NCBI RefSeq assembly: GCF_003018255.1
Contig: NZ_CP027440.1
Length of the DNA stretch: 64,000 nucleotides
Reading direction: 5' to 3' (one strand)
Source: Escherichia coli
GTDB lineage: Bacteria > Pseudomonadota > Gammaproteobacteria > Enterobacterales > Enterobacteriaceae
In this document: positions 7,788 to 24,714 of the stretch, one piece after another
Position numbering within the stretch: the first letter of the stretch is position 1
Layout of the letters: every line of letters starts with the position of its first letter
Position numbers and translations under genes: made by a program
Notes under the pieces: generated by a model
Told to the model about the DNA's origin: nothing
What the model saw: only the letters and a program-made list of their open reading frames with translations
Databases searched by the model: none

Positions 7788-9185
7788 TTACCCCTTAAAC
7801 GTTAACCACGGTCGAAATCTGACCGCTGGCTGAATTAATCCGGCTTCTTGTTGGGCTTCGATAACCGGACCAATATCTTTATAAGCCGCTGGCGCTTCTT
7901 CAAAACGTCGTTCTTCGCGCAATGTGACGCATTGCCACGGCAGCGTTGACTCTTCAGTCGCGCGTGAGCGCATGGCCTGCCGACGCTGGCTGCGTCCTGC
8001 TCCGTGACTGCATGACCACAGCCACTCCGGGTTGCCGCAACCTACCGCAAGCCACGAATAATCGCCCATTGAACCGGGGATTAACGCCAGATTGCCCACT
8101 CGTGCCGGTGTTGCGCCTTTGCGATGAATATTCATTTCATGCTCGCGAAGGATGATGTTATGTGGCACATCCACCACCAGATGCGAATTGTCCTGATGAA
8201 AGAGATTGGCAAGACATACGCGCACCATTTCGGCAATTGTGACGCGATTTAACCATGCGTAACGCGCCGCCATTCCTATCGCTTGTAGATATTCCTCCGC
8301 CAGTCCGCCTGCCAGACCATATAACCCGCTTTGTGGATGTTTATGTCCGGTGGGCCATTCAGCACGGGCGCGATCCATCCAGCGTCTTCCGACGTAAAAG
8401 CCAACATCTCGCGATCCACTGTGGATCATCACCACAATATCGCCTGTTTTCAGCCCTTGTTGCCAGGCTACATGGCGATCAACCACGCTATCAACGACCT
8501 GAAGTTCAATAAAATGATTACCTGAACCCGGCGTACCCAGACAAGGATCGCGGAGTAATGCGCGGTCCGTTGCCTGCAGGGCGGGTGGGGCATAACGCGA
8601 ATGACTGTTATGCTCGTTAAGCCCAATGCAGCGGTCAATCTCTTGTACCATTCGGGGGATATTCGTGCGTATCCAGAGACCTTCTGATGGCAAGGTCGAC
8701 ACGCAATCTGCCGGTCCGCCATCAAAAAGCGCGGTGAACGCCTGTGCGGATAACGGAACATCGCGCTCATTTTGCAGTAGCACTTGCGTTAACCGCTGAG
8801 CGATGACGTCTTTATGCGCTTCGGCTTGCTCAAGTGTTAATCCGGTCGTCAGCAGCCGCATGCCACAAGAAATATCGGTGCCGATGGCGGCGGGAATGAC
8901 TAAATCCGGCGTTGAGGCCACCACCGCGCCAACGGGGACGCCATTGCCGGGATGAAAATCTGGCGTCGCGCACGTCTGGCGCACATAACCTGGGTGGTCT
9001 GGTAGCTTCACTTCTGCAAAATCAAGCAGTTGTGTTACTGCTTTTTCTTCCAGCGGCAGTTCGTCCGGCAGCAGTACGCGGGCACTGGCACCTGATGGAC
9101 GAGATAATGAAACAATATTGTTGGCGCGGGAAAGTTGGATCCCTTTGCGCAGAAAGGCTTTATCAAGCCTTGAAAGATGATGCAT
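7788..9185 (-). CDS. RtcB-family RNA 3'-phosphate ligase paralogue (orphan, no rtcA/rtcR/prfH neighbour)
   Basis: 465-aa ORF; blocks IPAAIGTDISCGM, GSGNHFIELQ, MIHSGSRDVG, ALIPGSMGDYS, CSHGAGRS and C-terminal AYKDIGPV...KG align by eye to E. coli RtcB; about 29-residue N-terminal extension; ATG at 9185. Confidence 0.85.
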   Translation of the reverse strand: MHHLSRLDKAFLRKGIQLSRANNIVSLSRPSGASARVLLPDELPLEEKAVTQLLDFAEVKLPDHPGYVRQTCATPDFHPGNGVPVGAVVASTPDLVIPAAIGTDISCGMRLLTTGLTLEQAEAHKDVIAQRLTQVLLQNERDVPLSAQAFTALFDGGPADCVSTLPSEGLWIRTNIPRMVQEIDRCIGLNEHNSHSRYAPPALQATDRALLRDPCLGTPGSGNHFIELQVVDSVVDRHVAWQQGLKTGDIVVMIHSGSRDVGFYVGRRWMDRARAEWPTGHKHPQSGLYGLAGGLAEEYLQAIGMAARYAWLNRVTIAEMVRVCLANLFHQDNSHLVVDVPHNIILREHEMNIHRKGATPARVGNLALIPGSMGDYSWLAVGCGNPEWLWSCSHGAGRSQRRQAMRSRATEESTLPWQCVTLREERRFEEAPAAYKDIGPVIEAQQEAGLIQPAVRFRPWLTFKG

Positions 9186-9436
9186 AACGCTGTCCTGAAA
9201 TATAGACGTTAAACAACCCCCTGTATGGCGAGGGTAATTTTGTCTTTCCGGTCAGCAGCCAGCAAAAGGGAAAGAAAACGCGCGTAGTGTATGTGGCGAT
9301 AGCAAGTGTTACAAGTGGTAAATCTGGCTTATTGTTAAAGAGGAATTATCTTTTGTGAAGTCTTTTAAGGCCATGACTCATTCAATTTAACCGGACATAG
9401 ATAATATATAACATAGGGTATCTAAATTTATCATTG

Positions 9437-9575
9437 TATACTTGTCATAATTCAAGTTGCATGTGCTGCATCGATGTTCGCTCACCCAGGTCACTTACTT
9501 ATGTAAGCTTCTGGAAATTCATTATTTGTTCCCTTCCTGCAACTTGACTTATTTAGAGTATATTCATGTATACAC
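9437..9575. repeat. ERIC (IRU) repetitive element
   Basis: Contains cgctcaccc.ggtcacttacttatgtaagct (reverse complement of the ERIC2/ERIC1R primer regions) with inverted termini tgtatac...gtataca; near-identical to the copy at 46501-46630. Confidence 0.8.
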
Positions 9576-10060
9576 ATCGAGATTTCAGCCAGCAGACGCG
9601 CATCTGGCGTGCCGTGGCGGATCTGTAGCGGTTTTTGCAGAGTTTCGGTGAGGCGACGGCAAGCTGCAACGCCGTGGTTAACGACCGGTAAACCGTTCAG
9701 TTTAGAGGTTCCGGCTTCGATGGATTTTTTAATCCCTACAGCCGCTTCTTCGTACCGATTCAGACGGGTATATGCATCGATGGTGCTCGGCAGCAGATCG
9801 CACTCTTCTTGTAGTGTTTTCAGTAGTTCGATGTGTTCGTCCATCAGCGCCACACCTGCGCGCGGTTGGCTAAGGGTTTTACCTTCCTTGTCTGCTTTCA
9901 ACAGCGCAAGAGAGAAGCGTTTATGCTCAGGAATGGTTTGTTGGTATTTAACGCCATCTTCAAAGTTTTCAACATCCTTGCCGGTTTCCCAGGTTTTCAG
10001 TACCTGTTGCCGCTCGGTCATGAATTCGTCATGGGTTAATTTCTTATTTCGAAGTTCCAT
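9491..10060 (-). pseudogene. glmE: glutamate mutase E subunit (methylaspartate mutase epsilon), truncated
   Basis: First about 160 aa ([50 protein letters not shown]) match GlmE/MutE; homology ends near 9580 where the frame runs into the ERIC element and stops; full-length GlmE is about 480 aa. Confidence 0.75.
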
Positions 10061-10078
10061 TGATTGCAGCCTTAATTG

Positions 10079-11467
10079 TTATAGGGTTAAGCATTGAATA
10101 CTGGTGCGCGCGGCGGCCAGCGGATCGACTCTGGCGACGTTTGCCAGCAGTGGTAATAGCCCCCGGGAATCGCGGTAATATTCAAATTCGGTCGGTAAGA
10201 GAATGCGTTTACCGTCGTCGTTTAACTCGCGGTATTTCAACCAGTGATGCATATCGAACTGACTGGCACGCGAGAGCCATCCGCCGGATCCGACGACTTT
10301 ACGCACGGTTGTCAGGTCACGTCCCATCTGTAAATCGACATTGCCGACGCAGGTGCAGACCTCTTTTTTGGTGCCCGCATGTCTTTCGGTGGCATAACCC
10401 ACACACAGTCCGGCCAGGACGGTATCGAAATATTTTTCTTCTGCATTCGCGGGTAAGTAGTCGGGATGAGCGACTAGATGACGGAGGTAATGATAAAAAG
10501 CGTCCAGCTGTGCGGGTTGCTGAGCAAAATTCACATTGACTAACTCTTTCGCACTTTCACCAACCACCATTGCCGAGACGCGCATTCCCAGATCTCCTTC
10601 CACCGTCCGTTTTACGAAGGGTTCCGGTACGCCATGTAAAACAGTGTCGGGCGAGAGCGTGTTGGCACTGGCGGAATAGACATCGGTGGTTGCGCCACCC
10701 ATGTCGATCAGCATGAACTCTTTCCAGCTGTGATCGACATTACTGATTGCCTTAACCAGTTCAAAGACTGTCCACGGTGTCGGCATTGGTTCTTCGCCTG
10801 TTTTATCAACAACGACATCCAGCCCTTTCCCTTTAACGATGCGTTTAAGGAATATGTCGCAGATAGCCTGGCGTGCAGCTAAAGGGTTCGGATGGTCAAG
10901 ATCGGGCAGAACGTTGTCGACGATGGTCAGGTCTTTATGCCCGAGGATCTCCTGCACCTCGTCCTGAATATCCCGGTTTCCGGCATAAATAATGGCGCAG
11001 TCGAGTTTGGATTCTGCCAACACACGGGCGTTATTCAGTCCGTAGCTTTCTTCTCCGCCATCGGTGCCGCCGGTGAACAAGAGAATATCGGGCTGCGTTT
11101 CTTCCAGTGCCTGGATATCACGGCGGTTCAGCTTGTAGGCGTAAGATTGCGCAATTTTAGCACCCGCAGAGTGAGCGGTTACTTTCGCGGTTTCCAGGGT
11201 GATAGAAGGCACCAATCCCATTGCGGCAACCGCCAGCCCACCTTTGGCAGAGGAGGAATACTTCAATGCAACCTCACCACTGTTTAACAGGGGGAGGGCA
11301 TCATCTACGTTTAACACCTGGTCCAGGCTGGAGAAAAACCCCTTCGCCAGATGATGGGTGGTGGTTGGGGTCAGTACGTGGTTAACCAACGTTAACGCGT
11401 CCCCCTCCCGGGCGAAGAGGGCTGCTTTGGTCCACGTCGATCCAATATCGACAGAGACGATTTGCAT
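10079..11467 (-). CDS. glmL: glutamate mutase accessory protein GlmL/MutL (actin/Hsp70-like fold)
   Basis: 462-aa [21 protein letters not shown], between glmS and glmE as in clostridial mut operons; start overlaps glmS stop. Confidence 0.75.
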   Translation of the reverse strand: MQIVSVDIGSTWTKAALFAREGDALTLVNHVLTPTTTHHLAKGFFSSLDQVLNVDDALPLLNSGEVALKYSSSAKGGLAVAAMGLVPSITLETAKVTAHSAGAKIAQSYAYKLNRRDIQALEETQPDILLFTGGTDGGEESYGLNNARVLAESKLDCAIIYAGNRDIQDEVQEILGHKDLTIVDNVLPDLDHPNPLAARQAICDIFLKRIVKGKGLDVVVDKTGEEPMPTPWTVFELVKAISNVDHSWKEFMLIDMGGATTDVYSASANTLSPDTVLHGVPEPFVKRTVEGDLGMRVSAMVVGESAKELVNVNFAQQPAQLDAFYHYLRHLVAHPDYLPANAEEKYFDTVLAGLCVGYATERHAGTKKEVCTCVGNVDLQMGRDLTTVRKVVGSGGWLSRASQFDMHHWLKYRELNDDGKRILLPTEFEYYRDSRGLLPLLANVARVDPLAAARTSIQCLTL

Positions 11468-11916
11468 CAGATTGCCTCTTCAAGAATACGAGTATCAACG
11501 TCATGACGTTGGTTGATATCGTGGGCCATCAGCTGACAAACATCTTCTAAGTCATGACTTGGGGCAAAGACGCGATCAAATCCCATCTCTTTGAATTTGG
11601 TTTCCACGTCAGCGAAGTCATGTTTTCCGACCACCAGGTTACCGCCCACATAGAGCAGGATGTCCCCCAGTCCACGCTCGATGCAGCGTTCGCGCATGCC
11701 CAGACAGTCGATATCGCCATGCCCATAGATAGAGGAGACGACAATCGCGTCAGCACCAGTTTCAATGGCAGCATCAATATATTCGTCCTGGCTGACCATT
11801 ACGCCCAGATTAATAACTCTGAAGTCATGGTTGCTAAAAACGCGGTCCAGAACTTTATTGCCTACTGCATGGCAGTCCGCGCCAATAACGCCAATCACAA
11901 GTGTTGCTTTCTTCAT
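11467..11916 (-). CDS. glmS: glutamate mutase S subunit (B12-binding sigma subunit)
   Basis: 149 aa from [24 protein letters not shown] with DxHxxG cobalamin-binding motif; GGA-type SD upstream of ATG at 11916 (the track ORF extends further 5'). Confidence 0.82.
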
Positions 11917-12463
11917 GGGTAATCCTTTGTAAGACAGAGAGTAAAATAAGTTACACACGTCGTATTTATGGCCGCTCATAACGGCACAGGTTTAATATCA
12001 CAGGAGTGTCTTTATCTGACCGTAATGTTGCAATTGATCTATTTTCAAAATGTCTTTCGGGAAATGATTGTTTAAAGTGTGTTTTCAAATTCTCATGTTA
12101 ATTCAGTGTGTTATGTCAACTAATGTCATGAATGTTAAATTTTTAAAATTAACTTGATTTGATGTATTGAGATAATTGTGATCAACTTCTAATTTGCATT
12201 TTAGTGATATGGGGTTAGCCATGAGTAAATGCATTTCATAAAAGTTAAGTCGAATTTCACTGCAATTCATCTCTGCTTAATGTAAAAATAATGTTGAAAA
12301 TAACAAATAATTAATGATTCATGCGAATTATGACCTTTGTTAGCTCTTTTGATTTTTCGTAAAAAAGAAAAGTACATGAAGGTGCTACCAGTACGAGAAA
12401 CGTTAATCAAAAGTTTTATTACGTCTGGCAATAACGCAGGCCATTTTTCGCGACAGGAGGGAT

Positions 12464-12886
12464 TTAATCAGTATAATCCTCATACAATAGGTCAGGATTT
12501 ACAGAACCGTTAACGGGGTTTTGGTGTTGAAATTTAGAAATGGTGGAGTCAATCAATGAAGACAGTATCGAAAAAATGACTGTGTCAGAATTAATTTCAA
12601 TTAATCCTTCTCGTTGTTGACCAAAAAAGATATTTATCTTGATTTCATTTGTACTACGGAAATCAATATGTAGTAATTTTTGATCGCTGAGATTTTCTGT
12701 TTCATAAATGTTTTTGGCGATAGTCGGATGTATTGATGCCAGACATCTGCTCAGATAAGCCAGATCCTTTAGGGAACACCCCGCTGAGTAGAGGATGTCA
12801 GAGAATTTTTGTGTGTCAACTGTTGGCTCTGAAGCGTATGTTGCATTGACTGGAAGGGTGTTGAAGGAGATTTGAGATGGGATCAT
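12464..12886 (-). CDS. hypothetical protein, 140 aa, no recognisable family
   Basis: Uninterrupted ORF in a strongly AT-rich block, co-directional with and 80 bp downstream of the 314-aa ORF; weak SD; no motif I can identify. Confidence 0.5.
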   Translation of the reverse strand: MIPSQISFNTLPVNATYASEPTVDTQKFSDILYSAGCSLKDLAYLSRCLASIHPTIAKNIYETENLSDQKLLHIDFRSTNEIKINIFFGQQREGLIEINSDTVIFSILSSLIDSTISKFQHQNPVNGSVNPDLLYEDYTD

Positions 12887-12966
12887 TATTTAAATCTTTC
12901 CGTGAGTAATAAAAATTAATCCCCGGGCATTGTTTAGTAATATTTGCCACAGGGGATATATAAAAA

Positions 12967-13911
12967 TTAAAGTATTTGATTGGCATCGGTTAACTGATCA
13001 ATAACCAGTGCCAGATTGGTAAACATTTTGAAAAAGCGATACTGGCTCGGAATATCTCTTTCAAAGACGAAACATTCAATGTCATTGTTTGAAAAATAAA
13101 GGACTAGTGATGCTGATTCGTCAGGAAAAATATGGAAATATATCTGGTTACCAGAAGGAGGATAGTCCAGAAGAAGGGTATCTTTGCCCGTCACATACCT
13201 GTTGTGGTCGTGGATGCTGCGCTCACACTTCATCAGAGGTGTCATGATACTCATGTATTCATCTGATGTTAATATATTAAAATCACCATCCATTTTAAAG
13301 AAACGATAAAGTAACAGTACATCCTCTTGCGTAACCGGTTCGTTTGTTTTTAGAGGGAAATAAGTGGGAACCAGAAGATGAGGTTCTAATCTATTTTGTT
13401 GAGCGCTATAACTAAATTTGAACATAAATTCCGGATCGCTCATCAATTGAGCGACATAATTATGCCTGGCTTCAAAAATTTTAACTTTTATCAGGTTAAA
13501 TAAGTCTGTTTCGTCATCCTGTATTAAAAGACATTGGCCATAGCAGCCAGGCTTTTTTTCATTATAAGCAGAAACGGTTATTCTGTCAGGAGTGTCAACG
13601 TTATATCCAAAAGCCAGATAGTGACCTTCCTCATCGAGATTTGTTTCCAGGTTATTTAAATTCATCACATGAAGTGTTTGCAATGCTGATTCAATGAGCT
13701 GTTGACTCTCTGAGGTAAATGTTTCGCGCTGCGTTGTATAAAGTGTATCGATTCCAACGACTATCCGATGTGGGTCAAGGATGGCGGCAATCATCTTTAT
13801 TACCTGCACAGTCATGGGTGATGTCATTGATTCTTTATCTGTTTTTAGAGGATCATTAGATGGCCAACCTGAGAAGCGATTGACAGCAGAACTGATAATA
13901 TCAGGACTCAT
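12967..13911 (-). CDS. hypothetical protein, 314 aa, no recognisable family
   Basis: Long ORF in AT-rich DNA with GAGG SD 9 nt upstream of ATG at 13911; no long hydrophobic segments, no P-loop or other motif recognised. Confidence 0.6.
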   Translation of the reverse strand: MSPDIISSAVNRFSGWPSNDPLKTDKESMTSPMTVQVIKMIAAILDPHRIVVGIDTLYTTQRETFTSESQQLIESALQTLHVMNLNNLETNLDEEGHYLAFGYNVDTPDRITVSAYNEKKPGCYGQCLLIQDDETDLFNLIKVKIFEARHNYVAQLMSDPEFMFKFSYSAQQNRLEPHLLVPTYFPLKTNEPVTQEDVLLLYRFFKMDGDFNILTSDEYMSIMTPLMKCERSIHDHNRYVTGKDTLLLDYPPSGNQIYFHIFPDESASLVLYFSNNDIECFVFERDIPSQYRFFKMFTNLALVIDQLTDANQIL

Positions 13912-14339
13912 AGCAGCAACCTCATTGTAATCAAGCGAGGCGCTGAGCGTACTCGGCTATAGAAAAACTAACTTGCAAAAATCGCTCATTTTTCATTTAT
14001 CAGGCGAAAGTGGTCTCTGTTCACTCAGAAACAATCACTCCCGCTAAGTCATACCTGTTTCATCGATACATTTAAGTGATTATTACTAATGAAACAATAA
14101 CATAATGGGCTTACGGCCGGTGCTCATAAACGCAACAATCAATTAACTTTGATAAAAATATGTTATGTAAAATAGCAACAAATTGGCTAATCTAATCAAT
14201 TGGTATTATAAAAAGTGGATAAGGCGGTTCTGTTAAATAAAACACTGGTTTTTTATCTATACCTTTTCATTGTAATAATTGTGTTGCATAAATATTTCAC
14301 AATAAATTAACAATAAAATCACCAATGATCTATGGTTTA

Positions 14340-14713
14340 TACATAATTAACATATTTGGTTGATTTTGATATAAATCAATTTTTAATTCTTGAAAAAAAT
14401 CTGCAAAACACGATAAATTGTCGTAGATCAAATTGGTGAGATCGTGACAATTTCGCTATAAATTGATCACTGTCGAAAAATGCAAATTTGCTCAATAAAA
14501 ACCTGTTTATTGTAAGGATTTTGCGGCGTAATATAATTACGGGATCAATTTGGTTTATTCATTAACACATTTGTAACTTTTTTATCATTGTCTTTTCCTC
14601 TTTTGATGAAATGGCAACGATAGAGGCGAGCAAATAATTTTGTATTGGGGCATGCGTGTGACCCTTTCTAACGGGGTTCACTCTCGGAGTCTTCATGCGA
14701 TGAGCAAGGAGTC
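14340..14713 (+). promoter_or_regulatory. cydAB promoter/regulatory region with FNR-type sites
   Basis: TTGAT-ATAA-ATCAA at 14356-14369 and TTGTC-GTAG-ATCAA at 14418-14431 match the FNR consensus TTGAT-N4-ATCAA; AT-rich upstream of cydA. Confidence 0.6.
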
Positions 14714-14716
14714 ATG

Positions 14717-16285
14717 ATGTTAGATATAGTCGAACTGTCGCGCTTACAGTTTGCCTTGACCGCGATGTACCACTTCCTTTTTGTGCCACTGACGCTCGGT
14801 ATGGCGTTCCTGCTGGCCATTATGGAAACGGTCTACGTCCTTTCCGGCAAACAGATTTATAAAGATATGACCAAGTTCTGGGGCAAGTTGTTTGGTATCA
14901 ACTTCGCTCTGGGTGTGGCTACCGGTCTGACCATGGAGTTCCAGTTCGGGACTAACTGGTCTTACTATTCCCACTATGTAGGGGATATCTTCGGTGCGCC
15001 GCTGGCAATCGAAGGTCTGATGGCCTTCTTCCTCGAATCCACCTTTGTAGGTCTGTTCTTCTTCGGTTGGGATCGTCTGGGTAAAGTTCAGCATATGTGT
15101 GTCACCTGGCTGGTGGCGCTCGGTTCAAACCTGTCCGCACTGTGGATTCTGGTTGCGAACGGCTGGATGCAAAACCCAATCGCGTCCGATTTCAACTTTG
15201 AAACTATGCGTATGGAGATGGTGAGCTTCTCCGAGCTGGTGCTTAACCCGGTTGCTCAGGTGAAATTCGTTCACACTGTAGCGTCTGGTTATGTGACTGG
15301 CGCGATGTTCATCCTCGGTATCAGCGCATGGTATATGCTGAAAGGTCGTGACTTCGCCTTCGCTAAACGCTCTTTTGCTATCGCTGCCAGCTTCGGTATG
15401 GCTGCCGTTCTGTCTGTTATTGTTCTGGGTGATGAATCTGGTTACGAAATGGGCGACGTGCAGAAAACCAAACTGGCTGCTATTGAAGCCGAGTGGGAAA
15501 CGCAACCTGCGCCTGCTGCCTTTACTCTGTTCGGCATTCCTGATCAGGAAGAGGAGACGAACAAATTTGCGATCCAGATCCCTTACGCGCTGGGCATCAT
15601 TGCAACGCGTTCCGTGGATACTCCAGTTATCGGCCTGAAAGAACTGATGGTGCAGCATGAAGAACGCATTCGTAACGGGATGAAGGCGTACTCTCTGCTC
15701 GAGCAACTGCGTTCTGGTTCTACCGACCAGGCGGTTCGTGACCAGTTCAATAGCATGAAGAAAGACCTCGGTTACGGTCTGCTGCTGAAACGCTATACGC
15801 CAAACGTGGCTGATGCGACTGAAGCGCAGATTCAACAGGCAACCAAAGACTCCATTCCGCGTGTAGCGCCGCTGTACTTCGCGTTCCGTATCATGGTGGC
15901 GTGTGGCTTCCTGCTGCTGGCAATCATCGCGCTCTCTTTCTGGAGTGTCATCCGCAACCGCATTGGCGAGAAAAAATGGCTGCTGCGCGCCGCGCTGTAC
16001 GGTATTCCGCTGCCGTGGATTGCTGTAGAAGCGGGCTGGTTCGTGGCTGAATATGGTCGCCAACCGTGGGCTATCGGTGAAGTGCTGCCGACAGCTGTGG
16101 CGAACTCGTCACTGACCGCAGGCGATCTCATCTTCTCAATGGTGCTGATTTGCGGCCTGTATACCCTGTTCCTGGTGGCAGAATTGTTCTTAATGTTCAA
16201 ATTTGCACGCCTCGGCCCAAGCAGCCTGAAAACCGGTCGCTATCACTTTGAGCAGTCTTCCACGACTACTCAGCCGGCACGCTAA
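14717..16285 (+). CDS. cydA: cytochrome bd-I ubiquinol oxidase subunit I
   Basis: [20 protein letters not shown]..., 522 aa; the track ORF starts one codon earlier at 14714. Confidence 0.96.
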
Positions 16286-24101: not shown

Positions 24102-24177
24102 GGGTCGTTAGCTCAGTTGGTAGAGCAGTTGACTTTTAATCAATTGGTCGCAGGTTCGAATCCTGCACGACCCACCA
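24102..24177 (+). tRNA. lysW: tRNA-Lys (UUU)
   Basis: Identical to the lysT sequence, 2 nt after valT. Confidence 0.92.
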
Positions 24178-24228
24178 CTAATTACGGTGGGTTCGGTGGA
24201 AGTAGTTTGTAGTATTCAGCGCAGTATC

Positions 24229-24304
24229 GGGTGATTAGCTCAGCTGGGAGAGCACCTCCCTTACAAGGAGGGGGTCGGCGGTTCGATCCCGTCATCACCC
24301 ACCA
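24229..24304 (+). tRNA. valZ: tRNA-Val (UAC)
   Basis: Identical to the valT sequence. Confidence 0.92.
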
Positions 24305-24307
24305 CTC

Positions 24308-24383
24308 GGGTCGTTAGCTCAGTTGGTAGAGCAGTTGACTTTTAATCAATTGGTCGCAGGTTCGAATCCTGCACGACCCACCA
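24308..24383 (+). tRNA. lysY: tRNA-Lys (UUU)
   Basis: Identical tRNA-Lys copy. Confidence 0.92.
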
Positions 24384-24529
24384 GTTTTAACATCAAACTC
24401 AGATGTTAAGCGTGAAGGATAACGTTGCGCCAGCAACGGCCCGTAGGGCGAGCGAAGCGAGTCATCCTGCACGACCCACCAATTTTAAAGATTGGTTCCG
24501 AGTAGAAATCTTTCAGGTAACACCCGTAT

Positions 24530-24605
24530 GGGTCGTTAGCTCAGTTGGTAGAGCAGTTGACTTTTAATCAATTGGTCGCAGGTTCGAATCCTGCACGACC
24601 CACCA
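24530..24605 (+). tRNA. lysZ: tRNA-Lys (UUU)
   Basis: Identical tRNA-Lys copy. Confidence 0.92.
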
Positions 24606-24638
24606 TCCTGAATGATTAAAGCAGCATAATCCCGCAAG

Positions 24639-24714
24639 GGGTCGTTAGCTCAGTTGGTAGAGCAGTTGACTTTTAATCAATTGGTCGCAGGTTCGAATCC
24701 TGCACGACCCACCA
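24639..24714 (+). tRNA. lysQ: tRNA-Lys (UUU)
   Basis: Identical tRNA-Lys copy, last gene of the cluster. Confidence 0.92.

Follow-up and report, generated by a model that had tools for sequence, protein, structure and literature searches.

The 547-bp intergenic gap upstream of glmS (11917-12463, minus strand, running from the stop codon of a 140-aa ORF to the glmS ATG) is best explained as two parts, a glmS-proximal control region of about 285 bp that holds a deeply conserved sigma-70-type promoter with its operator, and a distal stretch of about 250 bp of filler. We give this explanation as a whole a probability of roughly three in four. The window, i.e., the whole stretch of 64,000 nucleotides analysed, is E. 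coli chromosome, and the gap sits within an accessory methylaspartate (glutamate fermentation) island in the mngB-cydA interval. The product of glmS (11467-11916, minus strand; Pfam B12-binding), first gene of the operon that the promoter would serve, is the B12-binding S subunit of glutamate (methylaspartate) mutase. Next come glmL (10079-11467) and a truncated glmE covering profile positions 1-122 of 441. Upstream of the gap, on the same strand, are the 140-aa ORF (12464-12886) and then a 314-aa ORF (12967-13911), past which lies the divergent control region of cydA, whose start is at 14714. The gap is present at full length in all of the island-bearing complete E. coli genomes (1135/5426).

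A preliminary description of this DNA had reported about 550 bp of AT-rich sequence without an ORF of 60 aa or more, and both statements hold: the gap has a G+C content of 32.2% compared to 50.8% for the whole window, which places it in the lowest 1.1% of 547-bp windows, and its longest ORF is 55 aa. The low G+C content is not peculiar to the gap, as the whole of 11917-14713, with the two upstream ORFan genes and the control region of cydA, has a G+C content of 35%. The ORFs of 54, 55, and 40 aa within the gap carry stops or frameshifts in other E. coli strains and none is conserved. A tRNA/tmRNA gene search of the gap region returned none, and the only tandem repeat there is a trivial 12-nt repeat of 2.2 copies. 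Promoter-like consensus matches in the gap numbered 11 with 12.2 expected, making such a scan uninformative. Two other points did not survive closer inspection. The 140-aa ORF had been placed convergent onto the gap; it is co-directional with glmS, both being on the minus strand in tandem. Similarly, most of the gap should not be called a leader, as the predicted 5' UTR is only about 82 nt long.

The conserved box and the predicted glmS promoter

A scan of a genome collection with GlmS returned 80 loci. Outside Escherichia, BLAST aligns just about 120 nt of the gap. Multiple alignment revealed an invariant 21-nt box, TTTTGAAAATAGATCAATTGC (12030-12050, minus strand), containing a dyad TTGA-N7-TCAA with a T-N11-A core centred at about -43. 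All Enterobacteriaceae loci have the box approximately 110-138 nt ahead of the ATG with one exception, Citrobacter amalonaticus S646 (L016, 5757-6003), in which a repeat of about 110 bp, which we take to be an ERIC/IRU-like element, is inserted in the predicted glmS 5' UTR and the box lies at -244. The box is unique in the window, with 0 occurrences expected by chance even when 3 mismatches are allowed. Together with TTTnnnGAAAGAnAT, it makes up an extended operator (12031-12064, minus strand) that aligns without gaps across four Enterobacterales families. A position weight matrix (PWM) of this operator scores 43.8 at the glmS site and -6.3 at the next best site in the window, and the glmS site is the sole strong match in the island. 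The preliminary description had named a lack of conservation beyond this strain among the outcomes that would count against it; the element is instead conserved well beyond it, across Enterobacterales. Its suggestion of a regulatory RNA is borne out in spirit, with the correction that the element appears to act not as RNA but as a promoter and operator at the DNA level.

To define the layout, 58 loci were anchored on ATCA(A/T)TTG and aligned without gaps. Among the genera covered are Escherichia, Klebsiella, Citrobacter, Salmonella, Enterobacter, Lelliottia, Pluralibacter, Buttiauxella, Pseudescherichia, Yokenella, Yersinia, Hafnia, Budvicia, and Morganella. The pattern ATCA(A/T)TTG-N3-N17-nAnnnT is shared by every glm locus of the 58, all from Enterobacterales. 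The TTG at the 3' end of the invariant box begins a predicted -35 element, TTGCAA (12028-12033, minus strand), which is followed by a spacer (12011-12027) of exactly 17 bp in 58/58 loci and a predicted, weak -10 element, GACACT (12005-12010), whose A-11, A-9, C-8, and T-7 are invariant in a 28-sequence Enterobacteriaceae alignment. When information content was calculated from the 38 sequences less than 90% identical to one another, the operator and the -10 columns A-11, A-9, and T-7 carried approximately 1.6-2 bits, while the spacer carried approximately 0 bits, i.e., its sequence is free. The -10 element reads GACACT, GAAACT, or CACACT in Enterobacteriaceae, CACATT in Yersinia, Hafnia, Budvicia, and Morganella, and CATATT in Yokenella. 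Such an arrangement, in which a spacer fixed in length and free in sequence separates TTG from an A..T hexamer, is characteristic of sigma-70 promoters, and TTGCAA-17-GACACT has the form of a sigma-70 hexamer pair whose TTG, A-11, T-7, and 17-bp length are kept in 58/58 loci. The matches to the consensus hexamers are weak (4/6 for the -35 and 3/6 for the -10) and fall below the threshold of the consensus scanner, which did not call the promoter. Such poor hexamers suggest activator dependence, and the glmS promoter is probably activator-dependent.

The predicted transcription start is 11998, 7 nt past the -10 element, inferred from this layout. Next to it is a conserved TATTAA (11992-11997, minus strand), in which T56 of the alignment is invariant and A59 is found in at least 90% of sequences. 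This motif may represent the transcript start or an alternative -10 element. As a -10 element it would lack the T at -7, and it is not kept in the Pseudescherichia group, so we rank it second; nevertheless, TATTAA, 7 bp downstream of GACACT, could be the real -10 element, in which case the operator would lie at about -56. Closer to the start codon, the Shine-Dalgarno sequence AAGGA (11923-11927, minus strand) lies in a near-invariant Enterobacteriaceae block that includes ACAgAGGATTACCCATG, with alignment columns A123 and G126-T129 invariant. We also considered a promoter on the opposite strand, read through the palindromic CAATTG, and rejected it as it fits only the TTGCAA of E. coli and not the other genera.

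With these elements in place, we propose that the weak core promoter (TTGCAA, the 17-bp spacer, and GACACT) would start transcription near 11998, and that its -35 element is fused to an operator of about 34 bp with TTTTGAAAATAGATCAATTGC at its core. A pathway-specific activator bound to the operator would recruit RNA polymerase to the glmS promoter, such that glmS expression would depend on ATCAATTG of the operator. In intact islands, the promoter would serve the methylaspartate operon glmS-glmL-glmE-mal-...-fumD-cobO.

Searches for a structured RNA in the gap

The preliminary description had also raised the possibility of a riboswitch-like, B12-related leader, and a long structured leader RNA (a cobalamin riboswitch, another kind of riboswitch, or an attenuator) controlling glmS in cis would be in keeping with the length of the gap and the B12 dependence of the enzyme. 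The gap does resemble the setting of the cobalamin riboswitch (RF00174, clan CL00101) in being a long non-coding stretch upstream of a B12-linked gene, although cobalamin riboswitches normally control genes for B12 synthesis or transport rather than B12-dependent enzymes. Unlike RF00174 riboswitches, it has no covariance-model match, conserved structure, terminator, or sequestering helix. A permissive Rfam scan of 9000-15000 (E<=10) retrieved nothing in the gap, cobalamin riboswitch models included, and a scan at gathering thresholds of 11 orthologous loci from 11 genera assigned no family to any glmS leader. The lack of a covariance-model match was one of the outcomes that the preliminary description had set against its own idea. 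The sole Rfam match in the 11 loci was a genuine RF00174 cobalamin riboswitch in Buttiauxella agrestis (L035, 1268-1442, minus strand, 99.8 bits), located 4.6 kb upstream of glmS on the opposite strand beside cobalamin-related genes. This match serves as a positive control, showing that the scan works.

Structure prediction gave the same picture. RNAalifold found 0 consensus pairs in 28 orthologous leaders, taken from the conserved box to the ATG, and folding of the predicted UTRs against shuffled sequences gave a mean z of -0.04 per sequence (-0.39 for the first 50 nt). Folding the whole gap against shuffled sequence gave z values of -0.77 in the sense and +0.60 in the antisense direction, i.e., no excess structure, and the many short inverted repeats noted earlier are at the level expected by chance. 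No terminator-like hairpin with a T-run was detected on the minus (glmS) strand of 11917-12463, and there is no conserved leader peptide.

One feature on the side of a leader RNA is a small hairpin, GCCG-TTATGAG-CGGC (11971-11985, minus strand), near the predicted 5' end of the mRNA. Most genera have a hairpin of other sequence at a similar position; Citrobacter amalonaticus has none. By eye, we considered this recurring hairpin after TATTAA as a candidate for covariation and rejected it, given its absence in that species and its statistical weakness (mean z -0.39). The conservation around the promoter is instead promoter-shaped, with fixed spacing and no compensatory changes. The gap thus holds no riboswitch or other structured RNA, and cis control of glmS by a leader of this kind is exceedingly improbable.

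A different way for RNA to be involved is that the box itself acts within a longer transcript, perhaps as a protein-binding stem-loop, the transcript being either read through from the 140-aa ORF or started at an upstream, CRP-dependent promoter. Consistent with this, no terminator was detected past the 140-aa ORF, CRP-like sites lie upstream (see below), and the sequence UUGA-AAAUAGA-UCAA resembles the tRNA-Lys anticodon arm. However, the stem would comprise just 4 A/U-rich pairs, and its left arm is lost in several lineages by changes that are uncompensated. The strict 17-bp distance to nAnnnT is a property of a promoter at the DNA level, and the extra copies of the operator described below have better -10 elements (TATATA, TATATT, and TAGTAT) at that same 17-bp distance. 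Most genera, moreover, have no upstream gene on the glmS strand. As such, we consider a box working as RNA to be highly improbable.

The distal part of the gap and the truncated island

The distal part of the gap (12216-12463) is Escherichia-specific filler in which no element could be detected; beyond about 12200, the sequence is found in Escherichia only. Within E. coli, identity to the window is 95.5-99.5% over the proximal 200 bp and 84.8-95% over the middle and distal parts of the same strains, so that the proximal part evolves 3-4 times slower than the distal part. In the most divergent strain, mid and distal divergence is close to the local synonymous divergence (dS 0.12-0.31), and divergence at about the synonymous rate indicates that the distal 250 bp or so behave as neutral filler. 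The earlier suggestion that the gap might be simply decayed sequence therefore fits this Escherichia-specific distal stretch and fails for the rest of the gap. Extended to the whole gap, it would mean AT-rich, horizontally acquired, silenced, and decaying DNA without function, a reading that draws on the AT richness shared with the rest of 11917-14713, the neutral divergence of the distal half, and the truncation of the operon in this strain. However, the proximal part shows little or no variation across genera that have unalignable flanking sequences, and its slow evolution within E. coli also speaks against this reading, which is refuted for the proximal 285 bp or so and very improbable overall.

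We also weighed whether a trans-acting small RNA or small protein might be encoded in the distal half, which has ORFs of 54 and 55 aa and which all island-bearing E. coli genomes carry at full length. The ORFs are interrupted in other strains, however, and there is no Rfam match, terminator, or excess structure; the distal half is absent outside Escherichia and diverges at a near-neutral rate. We hold the chance of such a product to be very slight.

The two genes upstream of the gap, the 140-aa ORFan gene (minus strand, co-directional with glmS) and the AT-rich 314-aa ORFan gene (also minus strand), retrieved no matches in Pfam, NCBIfam, PHROGs, or PADLOC. Both are confined to E. coli, with degenerate versions in Escherichia sp. 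MOD1-EC7003; every E. coli strain examined keeps their reading frames open, with dN/dS values of 0.24-0.33 for the 140-aa gene and 0.35-0.88 for the 314-aa gene. E. whittamii, Escherichia sp. E1V33, Klebsiella, Citrobacter, and Salmonella lack both, and in these the glmS control region runs directly into that of cydA. The two ORFans are probably genuine genes that evolve fast and were inserted between the control regions of cydA and glmS, and the distal 250 bp or so of AT-rich DNA would have come with them.

Two strains show rearrangements in this region. E. coli MEI003 (L002) carries a 327-bp tandem duplication at the equivalent of about 12239-12565, made up of the distal 225 bp of the gap and the last 102 bp of the 140-aa ORF; RefSeq annotates the duplication as a partial hypothetical protein. 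In Escherichia sp. MOD1-EC7003 (L030), the locus is mosaic, with 88-95% identity to the window over the gap and the cydA control region and only 85-86% over glmS/glmL, which suggests a recombination breakpoint near the glmS start, and about 306 bp of the 140-aa ORF are deleted.

In the strain analysed here, the island itself is truncated. An RtcB-family gene (7788-9185) abuts the glmE remnant (~9491-10060), a junction present in 5/5426 complete E. coli genomes; elsewhere, RtcB lies about 11-12 kb away, at the far end of the intact island. The rarity of the junction and the position of RtcB in other genomes point to a deletion of about 10 kb in this strain, which took the 3' part of glmE, followed by mal, atuA, DUF4387, gltP, fumD, cobO, and the LysR gene of the island. 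No orthologue of this LysR gene was found within the 64-kb window. The promoter and operator are still sequence-perfect despite the truncated operon, and the deletion is therefore probably recent. The promoter in this strain is an intact relic, with most of its operon gone and the regulator gene deleted.

The island's LysR regulator as candidate activator

Sites bound by LysR-type transcriptional regulators (LTTRs) typically take the form T-N11-A, and the box contains such a dyad, TGAAAATAGATCA. TGA-N7-TCA is kept in Enterobacteriaceae, Yersinia, Hafnia, and Budvicia, and the left arm is altered in Yokenella and Morganella. In intact islands, such as those of O157:H7 (L086) and Enterobacter (L087), a gene encoding a GcvA-like LysR protein (WP_001214266 family) is located at the far end past cobO, and no other regulator gene was seen in the island. 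This gene lies about 10 kb from the operon promoter in E. coli and Enterobacter and is convergent with the operon. Its orthologues are found 2.7 kb upstream of glmS in five Yersinia species (62-64% identity), 5.1 kb upstream of glmS in Yokenella (57% identity), and directly divergent from glmS in the Betaproteobacteria Aromatoleum and Rhodoferax (42-45% identity).

Extra copies of the operator were found beside this regulator gene. In Yokenella and Enterobacter sp. ENT03 (L056 and L057), a copy lies 119 bp from the start codon of the divergent LysR gene; it is identical to the local glmS operator at 26/34 positions, is followed by 17 bp and TATATA, and precedes a btu-like uptake operon encoding FecCD, ABC, TonB-receptor, and binding proteins. 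In two other Enterobacterales, copies precede fumD-cobO just downstream of the LysR gene (L089, 7466-7525, with -10 TAGTAT; L090, 7360-7419, with -10 TATATT) and have the same layout of -35, 17 bp, and -10. Additionally, the operator sequence diverges in the same lineages as the LysR protein. The T-N11-A box, the presence of a single regulator in the island, the extra operator copies, and this joint drift together make the LysR protein of the island the likely activator at the glmS operator, as far as can be inferred from these patterns.

If so, the box would be the operator of an undescribed LysR regulon that senses glutamate, methylaspartate, or mesaconate, or else corrinoid availability, and co-activates glutamate mutase, mesaconase, corrinoid adenosyltransferase, and, in some genera, corrinoid uptake. 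We offer this fuller version tentatively, at a little under an even chance.

Several weaker resemblances to the operator turned up alongside these copies. In O157, the region upstream of the LysR gene yielded no copy, and the best candidate there is a degenerate GTGAAAATTATTAAATTG (L086, 14152-14169; 13/18 positions) that faces away from LysR, into non-coding DNA ahead of sucD; such a match may be left over from an ancestral divergent promoter, or be due to chance. In Yersinia, Hafnia, Budvicia, and Morganella, the second-best match to the operator PWM is a recurring sequence containing TTTAcGGAATGAnCTCTTnAnAnTAT (L045, 3599-3632; L047, 3418-3451; L042, 1718-1751; L049, 4415-4448). These sites adjoin B12-related genes (sumT, pduX, and cbiD-like), in Yersinia lie inside the divergent LysR-sumT gap, and yielded no riboswitch in Rfam; they may represent a related operator. 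In the window itself, the second-best matches to the PWM of the operator core are four tRNA-Lys(UUU) anticodon arms (TTGACTTTTAATCAATTG) at 24102-24714, identical to the box at 13/18 positions. This likeness is almost certainly a coincidence.

The main alternative for the identity of the activator accepts the promoter and has the box bound not by LysR but by a global class II activator of the CRP/FNR family, e.g., FNR under anaerobic conditions. Like class II CRP/FNR promoters, the glmS promoter combines a poor core with an inverted repeat near -42 that overlaps the -35 element: the dyad TTGA-N7-TCAA, at about -42.5, resembles the FNR site TTGAT-N4-ATCAA. The pathway is fermentative, and there are CRP-like sites farther upstream. 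Against this, the half-sites are 1 bp too far apart for a CRP or FNR site, with 7 rather than 6 nt between TGA and TCA. The left half varies by lineage, reading TTCA, CTTA, or TTGT/TTGC in Yokenella, Morganella, and the fumD copies, changes that would abolish an FNR half-site, and the site diverges by lineage whereas CRP/FNR proteins are nearly invariant. Finally, the copies are confined to methylaspartate-pathway promoters beside the LysR gene. A CRP/FNR-family activator at the box is therefore unlikely. We also compared the box by eye to the consensus sequences for sigma-54, sigma-32, IHF, Fur, ArgR, Lrp, Cra, the LacI family, FNR, and CRP, and none fits; these comparisons are leads only.

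As for the upstream CRP-like sites, productive CRP positions are -41.5, -61.5, -71.5, and so on, and the consensus is TGTGA-N6-TCACA. A CRP-like site, AAATTAGAAGTTGATCACAATT (12174-12195, minus strand), matches 8/10 core positions and is centred at -186.5 from the predicted start, at a fixed position of about -187 in Enterobacteriaceae. A second TCACA motif at about -254 to -269 is found in other Enterobacteriaceae and is not present in E. coli. Both motifs have a perfect TCACA half-site and keep fixed distances from the promoter across Enterobacteriaceae, and Yersinia has better CRP-like sites near -252. A position of -187 is too far upstream for standard CRP activation.

Returning to LysR as the likely activator, known LTTR-dependent promoters include those bound by MetR at metE/metH (TGAA-N5-TTCA), BenM/CatM (ATAC-N7-GTAT), and GcvA at gcvT. 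The glmS promoter resembles these systems in having a T-N11-A dyad within a conserved block of about 35-45 bp that reaches a weak core promoter at its -35 element, in having an LTTR gene in the same cluster, and, in Yokenella, in having one operator copy in a divergent LTTR intergenic region. The recognition site of classical LysR promoters lies near -65 and is the best conserved, with an activation site near -35. The glmS block extends from about -72 to -30 relative to the predicted start and is strongest at -50 to -33, so that, unlike at the MetR, BenM/CatM, and GcvA sites, none of whose sequences the box resembles, the best-conserved part abuts the -35 element and is not near -65. A further difference from the classical arrangement is that the E. 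coli LTTR gene is about 10 kb away and convergent.

The genes concerned belong to the cluster analysed by Kronen and Berg in 2015 (PMC4682846), which contains glmS, glmL/mutL, glmE, mal, DUF1446/AtuA, gltP, fumD, cobA/cobO, and the LTTR gene. The LTTR is named there, in the legend of Fig. 5, as a putative regulator; the paper describes no promoter, operator, or regulation, and draws the clostridial clusters with a GntR-type regulator (PMC4682846). According to the same work, the methylaspartate pathway genes are found in approximately 1/4 of sequenced E. coli strains, in nearly all O157:H7, and in many opportunistic Enterobacterales, and the authors propose that the pathway lets these bacteria ferment gut glutamate (PMC4682846). 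Our searches of the accessible literature, including by Sakai and guessed EDL933 locus tags, retrieved no study of the glmS promoter or its regulation; as far as these searches reach, neither the conserved operator nor its probable LysR regulator appears to have been described.

The finding is an ordinary one, a promoter and operator region plus filler, of modest value for understanding the regulation of enteric glutamate fermentation, and it has little consequence in this strain given its truncated operon. It does remove a false lead, there being no B12 riboswitch upstream of glmS, and it provides a 34-bp operator, a predicted promoter, and a candidate regulator, making the timing of the switch to glutamate fermentation testable. 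If the proposed LysR regulon is real, it would mean that enteric pathogens link B12 supply to a B12-dependent fermentation through a protein rather than through a riboswitch.
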